Made by a program: the position numbers and the translations under genes. The notes beneath the pieces are model-generated. The model searched no databases. It had not been told where the DNA came from and saw only the letters and a list, made by a program, of their open reading frames with translations. A stretch of DNA of 64,000 nucleotides, from the NCBI RefSeq assembly GCF_037042905.1, contig NC_087245.1, positions 6,078,001 through 6,142,000 of the forward strand, read 5' to 3'. Within the stretch, counting starts at the first letter, position 1, and each line of letters begins with the position of its first letter. This stretch comes from Lytechinus pictus. Taxonomy: Eukaryota. This document shows positions 20,353 through 64,000 of this stretch, one piece after another.

Positions 20353-21403
20353 ATGACATCTCCCAGCGTTAGAACTAGACAGGCTTCCAAGGAAAAATCC
20401 AACACTCAGAGTTTAGTGACATCTGTTATTAAAGACATTTTGTTGGATAAAACTTTTCTTGCTCTTGTTGAGAGTCCACACGGGTCGTGTGGTCCAGTGG
20501 TTAGAGCATTGGACTCATAATCGCAAGGTCGTGAGTTCGAATCCCAACTCTGCCATTGTCTCCACTTTGATAAAAAGGCCCAAGAGTGATATCTGTCGTC
20601 TATTACGTCAGCCACTATGACTGATTAACCTAGACGTAAAATGTTTCCAAAGTAATTGGTTATATACCAGCTTGGCGTTTACCAGCAAAAAATGCTGTCC
20701 TGCCGAGTTCCTACGGGAGTTACCACAAACAGAGAGTCAGGTTTCTAAACAACTATCTGAACTACGTACTGAGGGAGAGAAACAGGAGTCAAGGTTATTT
20801 GATCTTGAGGTCAAAGTCGAACGATACACCCATGATATGAACGACATGAAATCCTTGATAGAAACCCAGAAATCAAGTATCAAGAAGCTACAACATGCCC
20901 AGGAACAATATTCTCGCAGAAATTGCCTTCGGTTCTTTGGCTTTCATGAGTCTCCCCAAGAAGATACAGATGACATCATCATGAAGCTCGCTTCTGAAGT
21001 TCTTGGAGTTCAGCTGGCGAGGAACGACATCGAGAGGAGCCACAGGATTACTTCAAGAACTAAATCATTAAGATCTGGAGTGGCTGAAAGCACAGAAAGA
21101 TCCCATCCTCCACGACAGATAATTGCCAAGTTTGCCTCGTACAGGACCCGCCAGATGATTCTTAGGCAACGTCGGAAGCTCGCTGGAAAGGGGCAGTCGA
21201 TTCAGGAAGATCTGACTGCTCAAAATGCACAACTTCTCCATGCTGCTAAGACATCTAAGGTAGTGGAAACTGCTTGGTCAGTGGATGGACGAATCTTTGT
21301 ACTTGTGTCAAATGGTACCACCAAAAAGAAACATCTAATAAAGAACAAAACTGAACTTGAGCAGCTCATTGAACTCAACGCACACTTATCCAGGCTTACT
21401 TGA
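20353..21403 (+). pseudogene. LINE ORF1p (coiled coil + RRM-type), 262 aa when the SINE is removed
   Basis: Joining 20353-20469 to 20732-21403 is in frame (MTSPSVRTRQ...LALVESQVSKQLSELR...). Motifs RRNCLRFFG, DIERSHR, PRQIIAKF, IQEDLT and WSVDGRI are typical of L1/L2/CR1-type ORF1. Confidence 0.85.
20477..20731 (+). mobile_element. tRNA(Met-like)-derived SINE inserted in ORF1, 7-bp TSD
   Basis: GAGAGTC is duplicated at 20470-20476 and 20732-20738. The head GGGTCGTGTGGTCCAGTGGTTAGAGC...CTCATAA...GTTCGAATCCC has A and B boxes. Confidence 0.9.
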
Positions 21404-21640
21404 AACAAACTTTGCCTGCATTGACTCACCTCTAAAGCTTACTACACTGTTTTTACTGTTGAAGTCTAAAACTGTTATTGATTTGTTGTACTTTGATTGT
21501 TAAGTTTTTTTTGTTTGTTTTTTACACTCTCTGCAGCTCCCCACCCTCCCCCGATTTCAATTTTTTTTCTCTCTGTCTATAGAGTATTTCTTTCCCATGT
21601 ATTTGATTGTATTTGTATTCCTTGTTATTGAACGCTTTTT

Positions 21641-21878
21641 ATGATTAGTAATTTATTCACCTGCAGTAACTGTTCCAAACCTCAATCTCATCATGAAAAT
21701 GCATTTTGTGATTCCTGCAATACTATATTATTCCCTTTTAACCATTATGTAAGCAATGAAGAATTTGTTTTCTCAATTTTTACTTTCTTTCATTTAGATA
21801 AGTCTATCGATGAGGACAATTTTCATGCCTTGGCTATTAATCCTTTTACTTTGAATGAATCTGAGAATGACTATAATG
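21641..21878 (+). pseudogene. LINE ORF2, 5' part (before the 8.86-kb insertion)
   Basis: MISNLFTCSNC...CDSC...LFPFN...ENDYN joins in frame to 30739 once the insertion is removed. Confidence 0.85.
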
Positions 21879-22160
21879 TATTTTAAAGACGACTCGGCGA
21901 TTTAAAATGATTTATTAGTCGGTGAACAATGCCAGGTCATGAAGGTATTTGTAATTTGGAATGGCGCGGTTGACGAGGTGATACGTCACAATGGCGCGCC
22001 AGCCTGTTTGGTTTATGCCCACAATGACAATAATTTGTACTGGGCGCAAGGAGCGCGCATGTTTTGGCGCGCGCGCCTAGGTGTGAAGGCGCGAAAAATC
22101 CTTCATTTTAGTCTTGGCTTTCAACGGAGATGAACGTCCAAAATATTCGCTTGTAATTTT
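21873..22160 (+). repeat. Split direct repeat A1 (288 bp, CpG-rich)
   Basis: Identical by eye to 29160-29447 (offset 7287). The ORF track shows the same 64-aa spurious ORF in both copies. Confidence 0.95.
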
Positions 22161-25100
22161 TCTTACGACCTTGCATTTTTGAAGACGTCGTAATCTACAA
22201 AGAGCAACGAAATCTACAAGAATTTTTTGTTGAAACCATCATCGATCGGGACTCACAACAATTTCGCTTATGAAGCTGAAAATGCAGTCCGAATTACTTG
22301 ATGATACTCTATTTCTTGCCTGGCCTAACATTAACAACAACTCGTCTGCTTTGACTTTGAACCAAGTTTAATACGACGGGGAGCGACTGTATCGATTACA
22401 GCAGTCAGCAGATCGGCTGGGCCCTAACTTTTGAGCTGTTTGGTTTCAGCAACGATGGGACGAATGATGAGAATGTGACTCAAGCTGCTAGGTGGAATTC
22501 AGTTCATTCGGCTTTTCATAAGCCTGGAATTTTTATTGAGTCTGAGAGTCTTGTCGTTAACGTGCAGGATTTGGGACTGGCAACAGCCAACCCAGCCAAC
22601 AAAACATTTGAGCACGGACCCTGGCACAAGGTTAGAGACTAGGCCTAAGTTAGGCCTACATTGGCAACAAAATCATGCATAAGTTAGACATTGTCGGCGA
22701 CGCCATGATACAGTAGACTATGATTCATCATGATCACCCAATGATATGACTATGACTATGAGTATTTAATGTTTGTCGGAAGTCAGAGGTCCTACTCCTG
22801 AGTCCGAGCTCTCGAGTCTGCTTGTGGGAGGTGAGGCGACGGTCTGGATTGGCAGACGGAACGGGGAACGGGGTACTCGTGGTCGGTACCACTACCAGAG
22901 AATTCACAAGTTTCAGTCTCTACAAGACCTAGCCTATCCGGTGAGTACGAAGCAGGAATAGATCTAGGCTAGACTCAGTCTAGATTTAGGTCTACGGTTT
23001 AGTGTCAAATAGTATCCTAGGCCTAGGCCTAGTAGGTCTACGTTAGGCCTAACGTTAAGCCTAGTATACTGTAGTGCTAACTTAGAGTAGAAGTTAGGCT
23101 TAAATGAATCGTAGAAGAGGCCTGCTTTGTAACGAGCAGGTAGGCCTGTCTAGGCCTGGCTTTAGATTTCGAACAAAATCATGTTCTTATTGGTCAGGAG
23201 TTAATAGGCTCTGAGTCCTTTTCATTTCAATTTCATGGCCCGTCAACCCCCCCCCCCCCCCGGTTTTCACGTTAGAACGCGAAGATCCTATTACCAACCA
23301 TAGGCCAGGCATAAGACTAGTTAAGGTAGTCAGGCAAACATGGTTCGATGGGGGGGGGGGGCTATTTGGCTTGTCAACACAATGTTTAGATTTGAATGTA
23401 GGTCATATGTCAAGCCATAATAAGACATAGCTTGGACTTGGCCTGGAATTAATTTTAATTTGGTCCAAGCGGTTTATACGATCATGATGGAAAAGGGAGG
23501 GGTTGTCGTCATAATTCAAACACGGGCCTAGCTAGGCCTGTTCCTACTTGACGACTTGTTTTAGTGTCTGAACTAGGTCACTAGGTGTGTCATGGTGATT
23601 TTTAAAAAGAGTTCAACAATTTTATTAACGTTAATTACCGTATCGTATTAGGTGTAGGCCCTAGTTCATGGCTGTGGTTAATATGGATGTAAATACATTT
23701 TCACAGCCGGTGGTTTGGAAATTGGGGTTAGTCTCCTCAGTATATGACTACATTGAGGTTCTAAAGCTTCGGCCAGAATCGATGTATATTTTCGATGGAA
23801 AATCAAAGAAAAATGAAGTCTATAGAGGCCGATATGAAATTGGTTCTAGCAGCCATTATTTACAGCTTATTCTAGGCCTAGTGATGGGCTAGGCTAAGAT
23901 GTATTTAAGACCATGATTAATTTTAAGCCGCCGTTTTTGGCAAAAATGGTGAGAATAGCAGAGGGTCTACTAGTGATTGGCAAAAAGTTCGAACTTTTTC
24001 GGTGCTGATAAATAACTGAGTGAGAAATGTCACTTTGTCTTTGTTATAAATTTACAAGTAGTCTACTACTAGTACAGGTACTCGGACTACAATTTAATGG
24101 TGACACCACAGAGGAAATTAGGCTAAGTCCAACGTTAGATCTACTAACAGTAGACGCGGTTTTACATGTCTGTTTTGGGGATAAATCAGCTGGTTCAGTT
24201 AGGCCTATAAAAGTAGTATTTGACCTCTGTGACTTTTTCTGGATATGGGCCAGCATGAGCTGTGTTCTCGGTCTAAAAATTATGTGGATAGACCGGTGGT
24301 GGAAGAGCTTATACTAGATATGTATACGTCTACTCAGTTTTTAAATGAACATCTACAGACTGCGACGGGCATGATATTATTGTTGAATCAGTCACTTGAA
24401 AAGTAGCGGATGTGGCTTAGCATTATGACATGCGATTGTATGGATTTCTTACAGTCTTTTAAAGGAAAATAACTAGAGTTTAAAGTATTGAAAATAATAC
24501 TATTTATTGCTGATGTTGATGATACAGTGTGATAATGATTATACATTAAATATAAATACCTCCACCTTGCACCAAGCAGTTCTGTTTATACATTTACGCC
24601 TTGAAACGGGTTGGTTTTTGGAATTCACTTTGCATGAATTGAATGCCGATGCTTGGTGGAAATGTGAGCTTCACATTTCGAGGAAACATGGTACACGTAA
24701 AAGTGGACTTACCATGCACATAATAGTCGGATGTAATTTCAAACTAGCTTGGAATCCCCAAATTAGTTTAGATTGAAGTCAAGTGGTCAACGAGCAGTTT
24801 GTTATAATATTATAGGCCTCCCAATAAGAAACCTTTATGTAATAGGAGTCGTTTATGTGCGATGATTTTGTGTGGATTTTATTTTGTGTAAAAAAAAAAA
24901 AGTAGAAATGCTTAGGCCCTATTGGAATTGAATTTAATTACTGGTTGTTATATAGCGCTTTATATCAACCTCGAAGTCGAACTGCTCAAAGCGCTTCACA
25001 ATTGAACCTAGTTGCACCTCATGGTTCAAGGTATTTATCAAATAGGCCTATTTGGCTGGTCAATGATTTGAACTGAGATAATATCATTTTAAAAAGAATG

Positions 25101-26739
25101 ATAATTATGTAATTATGTAAATGGGCATGTGTGGGAAAGTCTGAAATCTTGTAGATGCACCATGCTGTCACCCCCCCCCCCCTTTGCTTTCGGGGGACAC
25201 AATACGGATGCCTTTAATGCAATGAGCCATGTAGGTAAACTGGCCAATCAAACGAAATTTACCGATTGCACAATCAGGAACCAGGTTACAAAAGTACATC
25301 TTCTTTTTTGGAATTGTACAGCGTGTGAAATATTTTGTTGGTGGCCCGTTGAGTATGAAAATGTTTCCAATGGGCTGGATGCAATAATTTGGCTCGATTA
25401 TTTCTGCAGTGATATGAGGTAAACTGAATACTGATATAATAATGATAATATATTTCAAAATAATACAAGTTATAGTCATTTGGAACAGATTATTTGAAGC
25501 TTAATCTGGTTTTGAAATATATTCTAAGTTGCGACACGCACATGTATGCAGATGATATTGCATCGCTGGTTGGGGTTGTACTGTAGGGAATTGGAAAATT
25601 AAAGTTAAAAATGAAACATAAGGAGCAGGACTACTGATTATTCCGTGAAGGCGGTTTTCAGATGTTTCGGGAAGCTGCTCCTTTCGTGTTAAGCTCATAA
25701 TTGAGTGATAAATTGAAAGGGAAAGCAGAGGGACAAACCCGTTTTGGTACGAGATACAGATTTAGGTGTTCTGCCCAGGCTTTTTTCTTGTTTTCTTTTG
25801 CAGAGCCGGCTCTTTGGATAAAATGGATTCAAGCTGACTACTGCGAGGCAAGGTAGGCTGGCAGGAAAGTTTGATGACAATCGGACCTACTATAGTATAA
25901 CCTAGAACGCTCCAAGTCTGGCTGCCAAAGAGTTTCCCTTTGGTTGGATCTAGTTCCTGACCAGATAGCCTAGAGTCCATGGTAATGGATGTCAATTGTG
26001 GCGTTAATACGCTCTTGTAATAAATAGAAATGAACTGGGTATAGCCTGAGAACTATGCTGCCGGAAATTACCCTAATTGGAGCAGTGGTCAACGTCTTCA
26101 TCTTCATATTAATAATTTACCGACAGGTGTGGATTTATAATACGTAGTCCAAGGAATAGAGGTTTTCTTCAGTAAAAAAAACTGGTGAACAAACATCTTA
26201 GCCTTCAAGGAACAGTATTGCAGCAGGGAAAACAATTTCATGTTTGAAACATCATGATACAGTGGGCTATCTTGAATAATGAGTCCATGATATGAGGATG
26301 AGTTCATTATGATTTCATTTTCAGACTTTTTATGAGGTCCTCCATATTGTTCACTTGGAAGGGATTGGAACTTGAACATATGAAGAAAGCCCTTTGCCTC
26401 TTTGTGCTTTTGCCAACAAGAATGTAACATATTGTTCAGGACAAATATATATATATGTGCATGTATAAATGTATAAGGCACTTCAATTTTATTCATTATC
26501 CTTTGAAGGACTACTCGTCGGATGTTATTTTAATTTTGAAATAAACAATTATTTCATGGATGTGGTGAAGATGATAAGACAAAAAGTCAGTCATGTTTTA
26601 CGTCGATATGTGAATACATAATCGAAAAATGAAACATCCCCGGTAAAATTCCAGTTTATGTTCACTGGTTCTTAGTTTAGCTGCATGAGGGGTGTAGCTC
26701 TATAAACGGAGTAGTTCTGACGGGAAGGGTTCATGTTCA

Positions 26740-27572
26740 AATTGGTTTTAGTGCCTTCAATTATCATGGTTATACTCTATTGGTTATATGGGGTTATTCT
26801 GTGGATGTTACTCTAGTTTTCAGTTTCAGTTTTTATTTTATCTCATTTCCAACAGAACAGTTTTCAAAATCCATTATAACTCAGGAATGGTATGATGTCT
26901 GTTTGTTGGCATTAAGAGTGAGGTGACTAACTAAATGCTGTGGTTGGATTTTAATTGATCGATTGTCCACAATTGAATCATATGGGTGCATGGAGTTAAG
27001 TCATGCACTGTTATAATTATATGGCAAATGGGACAACAAGAAAGTGGCAGTACCTCAGTGCGGCATGCATTGTTGGTTTAGCTATGTTGGGATGCTAGTA
27101 CGTGTTAACTATATGGTCAAACTGATGGCTTTCGGCCATCTAATTGGTTTTAGTGCCTTCAGTTATCATGGTTATACCCCATTGGTTATATGGGGTTGTT
27201 CTGTGGATGTTACTCAAGTTTTCAGTTTCAGATTTTATCTTATCTCAGTTCCAACAGAACAGTACCGGTATATCAAATCAAAAATAAATACTAATAATGA
27301 AAAAATGAATAAAATAAAGTATGGTATGTACCGTATTTGTTGGAATTAAGTGTGAAGTGACTAGCTAAATGCCGTGTTTGGTTTTTATCGATCGATTGTC
27401 CACAATTGAATTATTTGTGTGCATAGGGTTAGATTATGCACTGTTATACATGTATGGCAAATGGGACAACAAGACAGAGGCAGTACCTCAGTGCGGCATG
27501 CATTGCTAGTTTAGCAATGTTGGGATGCCAGTATTTGTTAATTATATGGTCAAGCTGAAGGCGTTCAGCCAC
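26740..27572 (+). repeat. Diverged ~400-430-bp tandem duplication inside the SDR element
   Basis: AATTGGTTTTAGTGCCTTCA...GGCAGTACCTCAGTGCGGCATGCATTG... starts at both 26740 and 27142. Confidence 0.85.
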
Positions 27573-28335
27573 CATTGATAACTTATCAAAATTGGTGATG
27601 CAATGAATTTCAATTTTGAAGATTGCAATAGATTTGTATCAAAATCATGATACTTCAAATGGCATATTATCTTGTCTTCCTTCATATGTTTTGTTTAGTT
27701 TTGCGCATGGTAATCAGATTTTAATTGTGAATGAAGTTCTGACACGGTTATGTTTTAATGTATTTCTATTGGGAGATTTTTCCAACAGCTGAATACATTG
27801 AAGTGTTTTTCATGCTCTCATTATACTTGAGATGGATATTTGTTCATATACTTGAATTGGATTTTTCTATCTGGTTTTGGAATGCAATAAGTGAAATATT
27901 CAGGTGCAAAGTATTTGTCATTTCATGCTGGTTTAAAACGGGCTGGTATGTTGGTCAAGAATAGAAAACAGGTATACTGCGTATAAAATGATCACTCTTA
28001 TATCAGCCAGAATAGCTAGAGGCAAAGAATGCCAGCCTTCAGGTAACTGTGTCATGTAAGACAGCGACGTCAAGGCTGTACAAAGATTTTATACAAAGAT
28101 GATATATTTTAAATTCATTTAAAATTATTGGAGGGCTTGGAGGCCTACTTGACTACATATGCATGATAACTGATTTAGCTTGGCCAGCTAATGCAAAACT
28201 AGACTAAATTATGAACGAAGGCTTAAAAAATGAATGAAGTGTTTGGCGGCCGATCATATATATAAAATATATTCTCGTTTGGCGGTAATTTGTCAAATTA
28301 TGCCGCCTAAACACTGTTGTCATAAGATATATTGG

Positions 28336-29165
28336 CATGGCATATGTTCTTTAATCCACAATGGTCACTTTTGCAAGGTGTTTAAAGCAGTGAATTATAT
28401 TTTCGCCTCTAGTTATTAGATTTTCCACTTTGATGCCATGTACGTTGATTAATATTTCATATTGAATCGGGTCCTCATTCGGTACCTAGACGAAGGGGAT
28501 TTATTTATAACTTTACATAGTACTTTAAGAACGCAATTGTAGATTTGAATGTAAGGGTGTCACGCTCGAACTTTCAGTTTAGGCCTCACCTGATCTCATA
28601 GGCGGGGAGGCTGGTATTCTGTATACATTTATATTTTATGTAAGGGTGTCACGCTCGAACTTTCAGTTTAGGCCTCACCTGATCTCATAGGCGGGGAGGC
28701 TGGTATTCTGTATACATTTATATTTTTCGTGAAATTTAGGCCTCACCCAAGTTCTCATGCGGGAAGGCTGGTATATATATATATATGTATATTATATGAT
28801 ATAAGTATGACATCTGTAATCCACCGATTTGCCGGTAGCTCATAAATGTAGTTCATAGCTGTGCTGGTATTCCTGTCCGGCTAGCAGAGAACCAGTGGGA
28901 AAGCAGCCGCGAAATTTAACGTTGAATTTTCTGGGAGGGGGGCCTTCTAGCCGGGGGTTTAACCCCCCTTCGGGGAGCTAATTCGAGGCTATCGGTTGGT
29001 TTCAGATATACATGAATGTAAGTCTCTAATCAGAGGTATTCATATCTATGTTTTATACTTATGTGATTGTGACACCAATTTCGGGAAGCGTTCATCTCTA
29101 TTGAATAAAGCCACGACATAATCGCATATTATTTTGTTTTGTCATTTTGTTTGCCGAGAATAATG
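28336..29165 (+). repeat. Split direct repeat B1 (830 bp), containing 2 x 89-bp tandem units plus a partial third, and AATAAA at 29104-29109
   Basis: Matches 29909-30738 (offset 1573). One T/C difference was noticed near the 3' end. Confidence 0.95.
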
Positions 29166-29447
29166 TATTTTAAAGACGACTCGGCGATTTAAAATGATTT
29201 ATTAGTCGGTGAACAATGCCAGGTCATGAAGGTATTTGTAATTTGGAATGGCGCGGTTGACGAGGTGATACGTCACAATGGCGCGCCAGCCTGTTTGGTT
29301 TATGCCCACAATGACAATAATTTGTACTGGGCGCAAGGAGCGCGCATGTTTTGGCGCGCGCGCCTAGGTGTGAAGGCGCGAAAAATCCTTCATTTTAGTC
29401 TTGGCTTTCAACGGAGATGAACGTCCAAAATATTCGCTTGTAATTTT
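29160..29447 (+). repeat. Split direct repeat A2
   Basis: Copy of A1 directly abutting B1 through the shared ATAATG. Confidence 0.95.
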
Positions 29448-29908
29448 CCCACCTCCTCCCCAACAACCACCCATGTAAACGGTACGTTTGGGTCAAACGA
29501 TGTTGGAATATTGTTTAAACACATGCGTTGGAGAAGGTCGAGAATGAAGATACGCTATACGTATCATTCAGAGTTGATTTGTGTTTTATTGGAATGTACA
29601 GCTCGTTCAGGATGGAATAACGGGATGTAGAACTGTCGATAATGGACATTTGAATTAGTTTACTTACATGAATATAATATTGATTTATATAACGAAACAC
29701 GAATTCAAATCCGGAGGCAGTTTGCCTGGTCGCACACCAAAACAATACCAAGATCGTCGTGCATTTAGAAATGTGGGCCGTAAGGGAATTTTATCCTTCT
29801 GATCTATTTTGGACTGTGGTCAGGTGGGTTTTCGCCCTTACCCGTTTTTGTGGCTGGGTGTTCGTTATATATTGGTAATTCACATGAATTGTATTGTCAT
29901 ATTATTGT

Positions 29909-30738
29909 CATGGCATATGTTCTTTAATCCACAATGGTCACTTTTGCAAGGTGTTTAAAGCAGTGAATTATATTTTCGCCTCTAGTTATTAGATTTTCCA
30001 CTTTGATGCCATGTACGTTGATTAATATTTCATATTGAATCGGGTCCTCATTCGGTACCTAGACGAAGGGGATTTATTTATAACTTTACATAGTACTTTA
30101 AGAACGCAATTGTAGATTTGAATGTAAGGGTGTCACGCTCGAACTTTCAGTTTAGGCCTCACCTGATCTCATAGGCGGGGAGGCTGGTATTCTGTATACA
30201 TTTATATTTTATGTAAGGGTGTCACGCTCGAACTTTCAGTTTAGGCCTCACCTGATCTCATAGGCGGGGAGGCTGGTATTCTGTATACATTTATATTTTT
30301 CGTGAAATTTAGGCCTCACCCAAGTTCTCATGCGGGAAGGCTGGTATATATATATATATGTATATTATATGATATAAGTATGACATCTGTAATCCACCGA
30401 TTTGCCGGTAGCTCATAAATGTAGTTCATAGCTGTGCTGGTATTCCTGTCCGGCTAGCAGAGAACCAGTGGGAAAGCAGCCGCGAAATTTAACGTTGAAT
30501 TTTCTGGGAGGGGGGCCTTCTAGCCGGGGGTTTAACCCCCCTTCGGGGAGCTAATTCGAGGCTATCGGTTGGTTTCAGATATACATGAATGTAAGTCTCT
30601 AATCAGAGGTATTCATATCTATGTTTTATACTTATGTGATTGTGACACCAATTTCGGGAAGCGTTCATCTCTATTGAATAAAGCCACGACATAATCGCAT
30701 ATTATTTTGTTTTGTCATTTCGTTTGCCGAGAATAATG
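29909..30738 (+). repeat. Split direct repeat B2 (right terminus)
   Basis: Copy of B1. It ends GCCGAGAATAATG, after which LINE ORF2 resumes. Confidence 0.95.
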
Positions 30739-33682
30739 ATATAAGTAGCTTTCAATCTCCATTTAATGTAAACAATGCAAACAATGTTTCCAGTAAATAT
30801 ATATTTTCTGATGATTTTATCCCTAAGTATCATTCTACTTGTGACAACTTTTCTTTATTACATGTTAATTCCAGAAGTCTTGTTCGTAATTTTGACGACT
30901 TACAGCTTCTTCTGAAATCTCTAGATTATAAATTTACCGCTGTCGGGATTTCTGAAACATGGTTTCGTGATAATATTTCAATTGATATGTATAATATTGA
31001 TGGATATTCCCTTGTTCACACTGATAGAGTTGGTAGAAATGGAGGAGGAGTAGCATTGTATATAAGAGATGGCATTGATTATAACTTGTGCAATATGATA
31101 TCATTAAGTAAAGATCACTGTGATACTGTTTTTGTAGAAATTAATCAACCAAAAAAGAAATCTCTTGTAGTTGGTTGCATTTACAGAGTACCCAATACTG
31201 ATATAACTTTATTCAACGAAACACTTTCAAATATTCTTACTGACATTAACTACTCAAAAAAGGACATTTATCTATTAGGTGATTTCAATATTAACTTAAT
31301 CAATTATAACATTGACAACAAGACAAATGAATTCTTAAATACTCTTTTTTCATGTGGCTTTTTTCCATCTATTAACAAACCTACACGTGTGACAAGGCAC
31401 TCTGCTACGTTAATAGATAACATTTTTACTAACTGTATTGATATGAACAATAAGTATGGTATAATTTATTCTGATCTTTCGGATCACTTTCCAATTTTTC
31501 ATATTACTGACACCAAGTCTATTCCAATTCATTTGCATCATTGTAAGTCACGTATTATAACTGAAGAAAAAATATTGACATTTCAGAGAAAGCTTCTATC
31601 AATCGACTGGTCTCCAATTTATAGTAATTCAGATGTTAATGTCTCATATGACCTATTTATTCACAAACTCACTTCCCTATACTCTGAATGTTTTCCTTTA
31701 ACCAAAATAAAAATAAAAAAGTATAATAAACCTTGGATTACTCATGGTATCATGAAATCTATCAAAAGAAAACATAGACTTTATTGTTGCTATATCAAAA
31801 AAAGAGACTCTCAAAGTCGAAATAAGTATATTGAGTATAAAAATACATTAACCTGTACTATTCGTCAGTGTAAAAAAATCTTTTATGAAAACCTATTTAG
31901 CAAAACAAAAGGCGATATGAAAAAAACCTGGTCTGAAATAAATAATATATTAGGTAAAAAGAAAGACTCACTTCCATCTCATATGTATTTTAACCAAGAA
32001 AAGATTTTTAGTAAAACATCAATCAGTGAAGCTTTTAACAAGTATTTTGTTAATGTTGGTAAAACTACGCAAGAAAAGATTCCCAATCCCGTCTCTCATT
32101 TCACTGACTATTTATCAAACCCTGTACCTTCTTCTTTATTCTTTAATCCCACTTCTAATACTGAAATAATTAATGTTCTGTCGTCCATGAAAACATCTGC
32201 TTCACCAGGTCCTGACTCTATTGCTGGTCGTGTTATAAAGAAGTGTATTCATTCCATTTTAAACCCTCTTTGTTATATCTTAAATGAATCTTTATCACAA
32301 GGAATAGTGCCAGATAAGCTTAAGACTGCTTTAGTTGTTCCCATCTTTAAAAGGGGTGATCGACATGACATTGTAAACTACCGTCCAATTGCTTTATTAC
32401 CATTCTTTTCCAAGTTATTGGAAAAGTTAGTATATACCAGGTTGTACAAATTTCTAACAGTTAATCATGTTTTAATACCACAACAATTTGGATTTAGGAA
32501 GAACTTTTCTACTGACCTTGGTGTCCTAAATTTATTTAACATAATTTCAAAAGAAATAGATGATGGTAATTTTTGCCTTGGTGTCTTTATGGATCTGTCT
32601 AAGGCTTTTGACACCATTGATCACCACATATTGTTAAAAAAATTAGAATATTATGGAGTTCGAGGAATTCCCCTTCAGTGGTTTCTTAATTATTTATTTA
32701 ATAGAAACCAACATGTGGTGATTGATGGTGTCAAATCTCAACACAGAGACATATCTTGTGGAATTCCTCAGGGCTCTGTGTTGGGCCCCCTCCTGTTTCT
32801 TGTTTACATTAATGATATAATTAATAGCTCCCCAATTCTAAACTTTTCATTGTTTGCTGATGACACAACAGTCACATTATCTCATAAAAAAATAAATAAT
32901 CTTGTCTCATCAGCAAACAATGAATTAAGAAAATTAAATGATTGGTTCGTTTGCAACAAACTGTTTTTAAATTTAGACAAAACAAAGTATATCATTTTTC
33001 GAACTCGAGGCAGGAGGGACCCTCCTCATTCTCTAAATATTTTTCTTGGTGTACATAATATAAAACAAGTAAAACATTTTCAATTTTTAGGAGTAATTTT
33101 TAATGAACACCTCTCTTGGAAACCACATCTCAATTCAATCTGTACCAAAGTTTCAAGATCTATTGGAGTTATTTCTAAAATTAGACATTTTGTTCCCCAT
33201 TCAATTTTAATTACTCTTTATAACAGTATCATACTTCCTCACTTAAATTATTGTAACATTGTATGGGGTCATACATTCAAAACACACTTGGATAAATTGA
33301 CAATTTTACAAAAGAAAGCAATAAGACTTATCTCAAATGCTCCTTTTAGTAGTCATACAAAGCCTTTGCTTTTACAATCAAATTTATTAACTTTAAAAGA
33401 TATGATATCATTAAATTCACTAGTTTTTATGTACAAGCTTAATGCCAAAATCTTACCACCTCTCTACAGTGACATTTTTGTTTCAAATTCTCAAATCCAT
33501 TCTTACTTTACCCGTCACACAAATGCCTACGCCCTCCACACGTTCGAACATCAATTGCTTTTAATTCATTTAAGACTTACTTCCCCAAACTATGGAATGA
33601 AATTCCAAATGATATAAAAAATAGTTCTACTTTATCAAGATTTAGATCTTTATGCAGGAAAATGTTATTTTCCGTTTATTGA
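30739..33682 (+). pseudogene. LINE ORF2 (APE endonuclease + reverse transcriptase), main part; 1-nt frameshift near 33530
   Basis: Motifs LHVNSRSL, GISETW, GGGVALY, IYRVP, LLGDFN, LSDHFP, NYRPIALL, QFGFR, DLSKAFD, GIPQGSVLGPLLF, FADD and FLGV. The expected C-terminus (PKLWNEIPNDIK...SRFR) continues in a shifted frame to TGA at 33680-33682. Confidence 0.95.
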
Positions 33683-40559: not shown

Positions 40560-40987
40560 ACGTATCAGTCAATCGCTGATGTGGTTTACGGTACACCATG
40601 TGAAGTGTTGTAGAAACAGTGGATAGGAGAAGAGAAGAAATGGATAGGCGAGAAAGTGGAGATTTGAGAGTAGAGTATTCTTTCTTGAAAGTAGTCCTGA
40701 AAAGGACTGTAAACCAGGAAAGATTGATGAGTTGAGAACAGCTTGAGTAGTAGAGCTAGTGAGGAGATGCTGGCTTGAGTCGGCGAGTAGAGATGATGAG
40801 TAGTAGAGAGACTCGACGTTTCGGGCAGGTTGACTGTCCGTCTTCAGTCTTCTTTCTCGCCTATCCATTTCTTCTCTTCTCCTATCCACTGTTTCTACAA
40901 CACTTCACATGGTGTACCGTAAACCACATCAGCGATTGTACATACCACCATGCAAACCTTCAAACAACATCTGACGTATCAGTCAAT
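40560..40987. mobile_element. Penelope-like remnant: 87-bp inverted repeat, hammerhead motif, 14-bp flanking direct repeat
   Basis: 40570-40656 is the reverse complement of 40852-40938. ACGTATCAGTCAAT occurs at 40560-40573 and 40974-40987. Confidence 0.65.
40805..40850 (-). ncRNA. Minimal hammerhead-ribozyme-like motif
   Basis: The minus strand reads AGA-CTGAAGA-CGGACAG-TCAAC-CTGCCC-GAAAC-GTCGA-GTC-TCT: CUGANGA core, stem II, GAAA and GUC. Confidence 0.6.
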
Positions 40988-49235: not shown

Positions 49236-49306
49236 TGTCTCCGCCGGGAATCGAACCCGGACCCCAGCTTTGAACGCCGGTGCCTTAACCACTAGACCAC
49301 ATAGAC
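49236..49306 (-). tRNA. tRNA-like gene or pseudogene with TCA anticodon, inside a (TA)n-flanked repeat
   Basis: GTCTATG-TG-GTCTAGTGGTTAAGGC-A-CCGGC-GTTCAAA-GCTGG-GGT-CCGGG-TTCGATT-CCCGG-CGGAGAC-A followed immediately by TTTTTT. It has one acceptor-stem mismatch and a 3-nt variable loop. Confidence 0.55.
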
Positions 49307-61043: not shown

Positions 61044-64000
61044 TTTCAGCTGCACCCCTCCTTTATTTTAGTGAATAAGGTGTGGCACTGCCCTATATGA
61101 TTCATTTTGAATTTTAATGGGCTCCAAAATGCAGTAATTTATAAATTATAGCATAATCTTATTTCGATAAAGCCTTTGACATAAACAAAGCATATTTAAA
61201 ACAGATTTAGTTATTGCATATCAGAATGTTATGTTTGCCTGATGTTTTCTCAATAACTCTAAGCTGTTATTAATGAATTCTTTCTAGAAACAAAAATAAG
61301 CAATTTATTCAAACATGTCAGTTTCATTTTGTAGACATATGCATTGAATTTACCAATTCAGTACAAGGTACGTATGCCATCTTTCACAAATGTTGATTTT
61401 TATCACTGGTGGATCTGGGGGAGGGCACATCTGGCTCACCCCCCCCCCCCCCCCTTAGAGAGCCTCAGTCGAGATTTGTAATGAAAATATGCCATTTTCA
61501 CCAAAGTATGCCCCCCCCCCCGGAAAGCAAGGCCCTTTTTTTGCTTGACAAATTTTCATCATGAAAATGTGCCCCCCCCCCCAGGATAAATCCTGGATCC
61601 ACCCCTGGTTTTTATTAAGTTTACATGTATTTTCATTTTGAAAAAAAAGGTTTCCTAGAGATTTATAAACAGCATGATTTACACTGAGCGTGTCATACAC
61701 TTCTGTGCAGAAGAATATTATCTTGAGAAATTTGGTTATTAAATTATGGAAAATATCTTTTGCAAATGAAATTACTTGATTGCAATTATTTCTTACATTG
61801 TATTGTCATTTTACTTGATAGAAATTCATTATTTTTTATAACCATGACAGTGTTCTAATTTCATATTTGCTAAATTGTAATAATTCTTTTGATCTTCCTT
61901 CATCTGAAGTCATGAAAGTATGAATTCTAGTCATCTGCTTCAAAGTCTGCCCAATACAATGGTTACAAAGGGCCTAAGCATCACTTGTCATTTTTTAATA
62001 AGTAGTTAAGTCAGTAGTCAAGTAAGGGGTCAGACAGTTTGGCTGTATTATATTTGTTTAATTATCTTACTAGTGTCAATTTACTAAACTTTTGCTGTTT
62101 GTGATTGAACCCCCAAATTGCTCGATAGTACCATTATGTTGGACAGACGTTAATATTGACTAGAGGACTATTATTACTTTCCAAACCAACCTGAAGATAA
62201 TATGATACTTCACGTAGTACAGGGGTATATTGTCTCCCTTCCATTGTTGTGATGTATGGGCTGGGTAATATCATCTAACTTGTCCTGGAATAATCATTCT
62301 CTGCAACAAGTTCCACTTCAGCGACTCTCAGTTGAACATCATCATTCCTGGCATTGGCGGCGGAAGCCAAAAATTTTAGGGGGGAACCGCCAAAACTTTT
62401 TGACAAAAAAAAAAAAAAAATAGTGACCAAAAATCTTAGGGGGGGGGGGACACAGGAAACAAAAGTGAAAATTGACAAGCCAAAAAAAAAAAAAAAAAAA
62501 AAAGGTTATCAACAAAAAATTTAGGGGGGGGGGTCGTCCCCTCCCCACCTAAAATTTAGGGGGATACGTCCCCCCCCCCCACTTCCACCGCCTATGATTC
62601 CAGGTGCTTGGAGATCTTCGAAAGGCATGCTATAACATCCACTTAAGTTCCAGTTCCTTTCATGTTTTTTCCTCATCTTAGTGAGCATCTCCAAGTGTTC
62701 ATATTTTTAGTGTCCTTTTTTAGATTTACCAAACTCAGTTTTATTACCTGATAAATGAAATTACAAAATTCTATCCCAAAAATTGAACACTTTGATCAAG
62801 TTTGGTTACTTAAACTTAATGTTAGATAAACTGAAAATATGTAATAAAAGGCAAAATAATAATAATGATGAAAAAAATTTCAGCTGCACCCCTCCTTTAT
62901 TTTAGTGAATAAGGTGTGGCACTGCCCTATATGATTCATTTTGAATTTTAATGGGCTCCAAAATGCAGTAATTTATAAATTATAGCATAATCTTATTTCG
63001 ATAAAGCCTTTGACATAAACAAAGCATATTAAAAACAGATTTAGTTATTGCATATCAGAATGTTATGTTTGCCTGATGTTTTCTCAATAACTCTAAGCTG
63101 TTATTAATGAATTCTTTCTAGAAACAAAAATAAGCAATTTATTCAAACATGTCAGTTTCATTTTGTAGACATATGCATTGAATTTACCAATTCAGTACAA
63201 GGTACGTATGCCATCTTTCACAAATGTTGATTTTTATCACTGGTGGATCTGGGGGAGGGCACATCTGGCTCACCCCCCCCCCTTAGAGAGCCTCAGTCGA
63301 GATTTGTAATGAAAATATGCCATTTTCACCAAAGTATGCCCCCCCCCCCCCCCGGAAAGCAAGGCCCTTTTTTTGCTTGACAAATTTTCATCATGAAAAT
63401 GTGCCCCCCCCCCAGGATAAATCCTGGATCCACCCCTGGTTTTTATTAAGTTTACATGTATTTTCATTTTGAAAAAAAAGGTTTCCTAGAGATTTATAAA
63501 CAGCATGATTTACACTGAGCGTGTCATACACTTCTGTGCAGAAGAATATTATCTTGAGAAATTTGGTTATTAAATTATGGAAAATATCTTTTGCAAATGA
63601 AATTACTTGATTGCAATTATTTCTTACATTGTATTGTCATTTTACTTGATAGAAATTCATTATTTTTTATAACCATGACAGTGTTCTAATTTCATATTTG
63701 CTAAATTGTAATAATTCTTTTGATCTTCCTTCATCTGAAGTCATGAAAGTATGAATTCTAGTCATCTGCTTCAAAGTCTGCCCAATACAATGGTTACAAA
63801 GGGCCTAAGCATCACTTGTCATTTTTTAATAAGTAGTTAAGTCAGTAGTCAAGTAAGGGGTCAGACAGTTTGGCTGTATTATATTTGTTTAATTATCTTA
63901 CTAGTGTCAATTTACTAAACTTTTGCTGTTTGTGATTGAACCCCCAAATTGCTCGATAGTACCATTATGTTGGACAGACGTTAATATTGACTAGAGGACT
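61044..64000 (+). repeat. Near-identical direct duplication, period ~1.83 kb (61044-62169 = 62878-64000, continues past the window)
   Basis: Both copies run from TTTCAGCTGCACCCCTCC to TAGAGGACT. Differences seen are mainly in homopolymer lengths. Confidence 0.95.
62352..62596. mobile_element. hAT-like MITE with near-perfect 8-bp TSD
   Basis: Ends CATTGGCGGCGGAAG / CTTCCACCGCCTATG, flanked by ATTCCTGG (62344-51) and ATTCCAGG (62597-604). Confidence 0.7.

Follow-up and report, generated by a model that had tools for sequence, protein, structure and literature searches.

A split-repeat element in a sea urchin LINE, with the same hexamer at both flanks and at its internal junction

When the same six bases, ATAATG, stand at both edges of an inserted element and again at a joint inside it, are they a target-site duplication (TSD) made by a nuclease, or a crossover core that element and target each brought to the integration? 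The question is raised by a locus in Lytechinus pictus, which we analysed within a window of 64,000 nt (NC_087245.1, positions 6,078,001 to 6,142,000, forward strand; all coordinates below are counted from the first letter of this window).

Architecture of the element and its interrupted target

The element is 8,866 nt long, has the order A1-interior-B1A2-spacer-B2, and is inserted in ORF2 of a LINE; all parts are given on the plus strand. Repeat A1 (288 nt, 21873-22160), which is CpG-rich with an observed/expected ratio of 1.6, is identical at 288/288 positions to repeat A2 (29160-29447). Repeat B1 (836 nt, 28330-29165) has a fuzzy start, at 28330 or 28336, and matches repeat B2 (29903-30738) at 834 of 836 positions, with mismatches at 28335 and 29148. 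Between A1 and B1 lies a non-coding interior of 6.2 kb (22161-28329) with a longest stop-to-stop frame of 141 aa; between A2 and B2 lies a unique spacer of 455 nt (29448-29902) without similarity to the interior. The near-identity of both repeat pairs implies that the insertion would be very recent.

ATAATG is present at the three places, and with the flanks, that the initial annotation had described. The left core (21873-21878) opens A1 and can also be read as LINE ORF2 sequence, the internal core (29160-29165) is the overlap of the B1 end with the A2 start, and the right core (30733-30738) ends B2. At this one complete insertion site, the short repeat that flanks the element is the element's own junction word. 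A search of the whole window for solo B ends with a two-mismatch pattern returned 5 matches compared to 3.5 expected, and no solo B end was found.

Several other features lie within the element. Each B repeat contains two exact 89-nt tandem units and a diverged partial third (28549-28798 and 30122-30371), and the interior carries a tandem duplication of about 430 nt at 80% identity (26737-27571). GC skew is positive over 22001-31000, reaching 0.21 per kb, and mostly negative in the downstream LINE.

The LINE can be followed on both sides of the insertion. The 5′ part of ORF2 (21632-21878, plus strand) is an open frame to which 35 of 120 ORF2 relatives align; the relatives of the 3′ part (30739-33617, plus strand) are endonuclease and reverse transcriptase proteins (PF03372, PF14529, PF00078). 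It had been claimed that the reconstructed empty site restores ORF2 with a single hexamer. Joining the two parts with one hexamer does give an open frame, ENDYN-DISSFQ, and to that extent the claim stands; a single hexamer, however, is not demonstrated by the frame, which stays open with 0, 3, 6, 9 or 12 target bases kept. Because so many base counts keep it open, we rejected frame restoration as a test of one versus two hexamers. The linker across the insertion site is 52 aa long, compared to 46-59 aa in the relatives where it was measurable (23/120, both anchor motifs found). The LINE shows no large loss or gain at the insertion, and both element ends are clean. Protein searches did not find a near-identical copy of the LINE, the best relatives having 51-54% identity, and a scan of viral contigs, queried with the LINE protein, yielded no relative.

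The junction hexamer in other runs and in the LINE

We compared four public runs (X1, X9, X11 and X23) over 20500-29270; X1, X9 and X11 cover the interior (22161-28329) from end to end. In run X9 (possibly DNA, organism B), contig 17 reads B-ATAATG-A and then continues into the spacer, both extremities of which, start and end, show up as loose ends in this run. The contig differs from the window at 10 positions in 360 nt of B and at one position in A (22019, outside the core), and its depth is 14.1, compared to an interior median of 6.4. X9 has no depth over the LINE bins (20793-21671), with the caveat that the record filters may drop some matches. The same B|A joint with its hexamer is also found in run X1. 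Given that X9 carries the joint without LINE depth, the comparison of these sequences indicates that the hexamer at the junction is a property of the element family rather than something acquired from the interrupted LINE. Scans of metagenomes with words from the A repeat found no element copies.

Run X11 (possibly DNA, organism C) bears on the target. Its contig 11, with a depth of 194, tracks the LINE over 21542-21878 and then leaves the element, the final 4 letters not fitting A. This depth is comparable to that of other X11 LINE bins (183-259). Because contig 11 continues at LINE-like depth through 21878, uninterrupted copies of the multi-copy LINE appear to carry ATAATG too, whether in one copy or two.

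At a homology-free join, six or more matching bases would arise by chance at 0.31-0.47% of positions, as estimated over 109,948 positions outside the element on both strands. With a hexamer that is borne by the element's joint (X9 and X1) and apparently also by the multi-copy LINE (X11 contig 11), and with so small a chance of coincidence, the initial proposal that the repeat is a crossover core, not a nuclease-made TSD, is well supported.

Another contig of X11 is harder to place. Contig 12 matches A only from 21876; its depth is 19.5, and about 200 nt of it contain 13 differences and one gap. A clipped alignment may account for this, or the contig may come from a diverged family, but as a genuine left end it would not fit an invariant hexamer.

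On the 5′ side of the LINE, the region 20480-20733 was recognized by eye as a high-copy SINE-like repeat with a tRNA-like 5′ part, directly before the first ORF of the LINE. An X11 contig agrees with the LINE from 20732 onward but carries 180 extra letters at odds with the window, from which we infer that the LINE is probably interrupted or truncated on its 5′ side here.

A proposed route through RNA and borrowed enzymes

We regard it as likely that a gene-less split-repeat element was inserted here by tyrosine-recombinase crossover within ATAATG, using enzymes borrowed from a partner of the Ngaro or PAT type. By this route, a plus-strand RNA would begin within A1 and run to the poly(A) signal of B2, about 50 nt before the element end, and would be reverse-transcribed by the reverse transcriptase (RT) of the partner. 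The internal B1|A2 joint would supply the template from which both missing ends are restored, such that the cDNA donor carries B-core-A. The partner's tyrosine recombinase would then cross this donor joint with a matching genomic word, and one core would be left from each. The mechanism is not new; it is the model already published for DIRS-order retrotransposons. In predicting potentially precise excision, the initial annotation read too much into the locus; such excision may be possible in principle, and likeness between target and junction is confined to the six bases.

The need for a partner is raised by the coding content. We scanned against Pfam 49 of the 57 listed element frames together with two LINE frames, excluding A2/B2 duplicates and frames that overlap the LINE edges. 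None of the 49 distinct element ORFs, all of at least 50 aa, reached the cut-off, nor did the two LINE frames, and among the element ORFs no recombinase, reverse transcriptase or HUH gene was seen; an Rfam search over 21500-31000 with E up to 1 gave no match. Judged from its frames, then, the element appears to be non-autonomous, and it is the architecture that points to a recombinase. The shared core sustains the crossover called in the initial annotation; that the enzyme is a tyrosine recombinase is not borne out by the ORFs, and a double-stranded circle as the donor is conjectural.

An RNA step is suggested by depth and by sequence signals. The contigs listed for X1 cover the interior with 0-5 differences each; no matching run listed is recorded as RNA, and that X1 is RNA is a guess. 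Its depth climbs from 24 beside A1 to about 70 beside B1 (Spearman 0.95 over 20 bins, compared to 0.30 in X9 and 0.56 in X11). On the junction contig it is 95, roughly what the two ends add up to, and the LINE has none. A candidate poly(A) signal, AATAAA, lies at 29104-29109 on the plus strand, about 50 nt ahead of the core, with a second copy at 30677; it is followed by a T/GT-rich tract at about 29130-29152. The gradient in X1 and the putative signal with its tract fit a long plus-strand poly(A) RNA; the depth trend that X11 also shows speaks against this reading.

The raw RNA run X23 gives a different strand. Most of its first mates map to the plus strand (13.4 versus 3.7 in A and 10.6-12.5 versus 2.4 in B), which by the rule for most stranded libraries usually points to minus-strand RNA. 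Read depth there does not exceed 13, and since every read, or nearly every one, departs from the window at several positions, the X23 reads probably derive from a relative.

The layout places the element near known families. The order A1-B1-A2-B2 is described as defining Ngaro, PAT and VIPER (PMC9210276, PMC6681497, PMC4157794, PMC8969392, PMC8547959), and both Ngaro and PAT-like retrotransposons are reported from sea urchin in one of these papers (PMC4157794). That split-direct-repeat layout, A1-interior-B1-A2-B2 with identical pairs, is present here, and pieces of it recur in X9. As passages on Ngaro and PAT have it, those elements share with ours the layout, the identical pairs and the lack of a conventional TSD (PMC9210276, PMC6681497, PMC8969392). 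Unlike them, the present element has no gag, RT/RH or tyrosine recombinase, and it has a 455-nt spacer between A2 and B2 and a long B repeat of 836 nt. Without those genes it is not assignable to Ngaro or PAT, and an autonomous member of either group was rejected on the same grounds, the longest frame being only 141 aa. TOC1 has split repeats with a short spacer. This element of Chlamydomonas reinhardtii is called a non-autonomous DIRS retrotransposon (PMC9940879); it and our element are both non-autonomous, and they differ in host and sequence.

Three other groups were considered and rejected. In DIRS1-like elements, the junction word is described as recombining with an identical 3-bp genomic word, each of the two giving one flank copy (PMC3266345, PMC7192593). 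Those elements have inverted terminal repeats, an internal complementary region and a 3-bp junction, whereas here the long repeats are direct, which excludes the assignment, and the match extends to as many as six bases rather than three. For Cryptons, terminal direct repeats of 4-6 bp are read in the accounts cited as recombination substrates or microhomology, not as TSDs (PMC3212892, PMC13465315). Long direct repeats are absent from Cryptons, which encode a recombinase of their own; the present element is the opposite on both counts, and its direct repeats of 288 and 836 nt rule it out as a Crypton. Penelope-like elements carry a pseudo-LTR from a partial tandem copy and often a hammerhead ribozyme; we rejected this identity because the spacer is unrelated to the interior, leaving no pseudo-LTR, and because of the negative Rfam result over the element. 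The rule that junction equals target was reportedly proposed for split-repeat elements by Goodwin and Poulter in 2004 and in the kangaroo paper. Our search of titles and abstract openings, with most subscription papers and Repbase outside its range, found no description of the present family or of a hairpin at the B|A joint.

Core length, the junction hairpin and other routes to the same site

The empty site matches the B|A junction over exactly six bases, and the identity ends on both sides. How much of this match would a recombinase require? A required core of 3 nt would extend to six by chance at 7.6-10% of sites, and one of 4 nt at 20-24%. Because cores of this size can reach six by chance, one site shows homology, not its required length. 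The reading of ATAATG as the core therefore holds for the shared six-base match but not for the need for all six; the required core is probably three to six bases of ATAATG, and not necessarily the whole word. For a split-repeat element, this very young copy in a multi-copy LINE offers both a donor joint and a target that are clearly delimited, and with more copies and the partner in hand both core length and the role of a junction hairpin (below) become testable.

The same retro-element donor could instead have entered the LINE at a six-base microhomology, through strand invasion or host repair, in which case no core would be fixed. This would suit a single complete insertion site at which the target is unlike the junction beyond six bases, and it would suit X11 contig 12, which begins at 21876. 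We nonetheless think it unlikely: both ends are clean, the LINE has lost or gained little (the 52-aa linker falls among the 46-59 aa of the 23/120 relatives), and both ends land on the very hexamer of the internal joint.

If a tyrosine recombinase carried out the crossover, as we prefer, the form of its substrate is of interest. A classical tyrosine-recombinase site is described as two inverted arms of 11-13 bp around a spacer of 6-8 bp (PMC3212892). The junction has imperfect inverted repeats across B|A (29142-29216), pairing 29147-29157 with 29206-29216 or 29142-29158 with 29180-29197; these arms are separated by 48 or 21 nt and are not centred on the core, and we rejected a classical site on this basis. 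The last 20 nt of B can nevertheless pair with the first 57 nt of A across the core. The folding gain, which we noticed post hoc, is -8.6 kcal/mol compared to about -1.9 for random left arms. Across four arm lengths it was matched by 0-3 of 300 genomic arms and 0-1 of 300 shuffled arms, and six other boundaries gave gains of 0 to -3.6. As single-stranded DNA, the junction can fold on both strands, with gains of -8.6 and -8.1 kcal/mol. The local-alignment score of the arms is not significant, since 511 of 3,592 windows do at least as well; the folding gain alone stands out.

The B1/B2 difference at 29148 sits in a hairpin arm, and the junction copy retains the pair. Among the three variants in this part of A carried by all X23 reads, and judged by hand against the B of the window, those at 21923 and 21930 would improve the outer stem and the one at 21916 would break a pair. 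Integron attC sites and the attP of CTX phage are folded single-strand recombination substrates. Given that the B end pairs with the A start only once the two are joined, the hairpin is a possible recombinase substrate here too, but that the recombinase acts on a folded single-stranded B|A junction, not on a duplex circle, seems to us doubtful. If true, this would agree with the finding that DIRS-1 cDNA is linear and single-stranded (PMC7192593), and it would explain why a classical arm-spacer-arm site is absent. The same paper states that, as of 2020, no experiment had tested how specific the DIRS-1 recombinase is (PMC7192593).

A junction that folds as a single strand, and on both strands, would also serve an HUH-type single-strand DNA transposon, which would use the hairpin and a short target word without any RNA step. 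IS200/IS605-like and Replitron-like elements are families of this type. Such a transposon would leave unexplained the two long near-identical split-repeat pairs, the AATAAA near the B end and the depth in X1 that rises toward the 3′ end; with no HUH gene among the Pfam-scanned ORFs of the element as well, we judge this origin quite improbable.

Two target-specific DNA transposons, A-interior-B and A-spacer-B, might have inserted in succession, each with a true ATAATG TSD. Three hexamers would be left, as is seen, and A and B do have weak subterminal inverted repeats, yet the very termini have none. Moreover, X9 has the B|A joint with the same spacer at about twice the interior depth and without LINE depth, and while B1 and B2 differ at 2 places, the B of X9 differs at 10 in 360 nt. 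Taken together, these observations make two insertions very unlikely. That the repeat is an ordinary nuclease-made 6-bp TSD and the internal match a coincidence is extremely unlikely, for although ATAATG is frequent in a window as rich in AT as this one (44 sites on the plus strand, 49 on the minus strand), the chance of such a match is that given above, and other runs conserve the hexamer at the junction.

Elsewhere in the window, a direct duplication at a spacing of about 1.83 kb and 99% identity (61044-64000) runs off the window end. Perfect 87-nt inverted repeats lie 195 nt apart at 40570-40938 and are MITE-like. On the minus strand at 49236-49306, ARAGORN calls a tRNA-SeC (TCA), which may be a tRNA-derived repeat.
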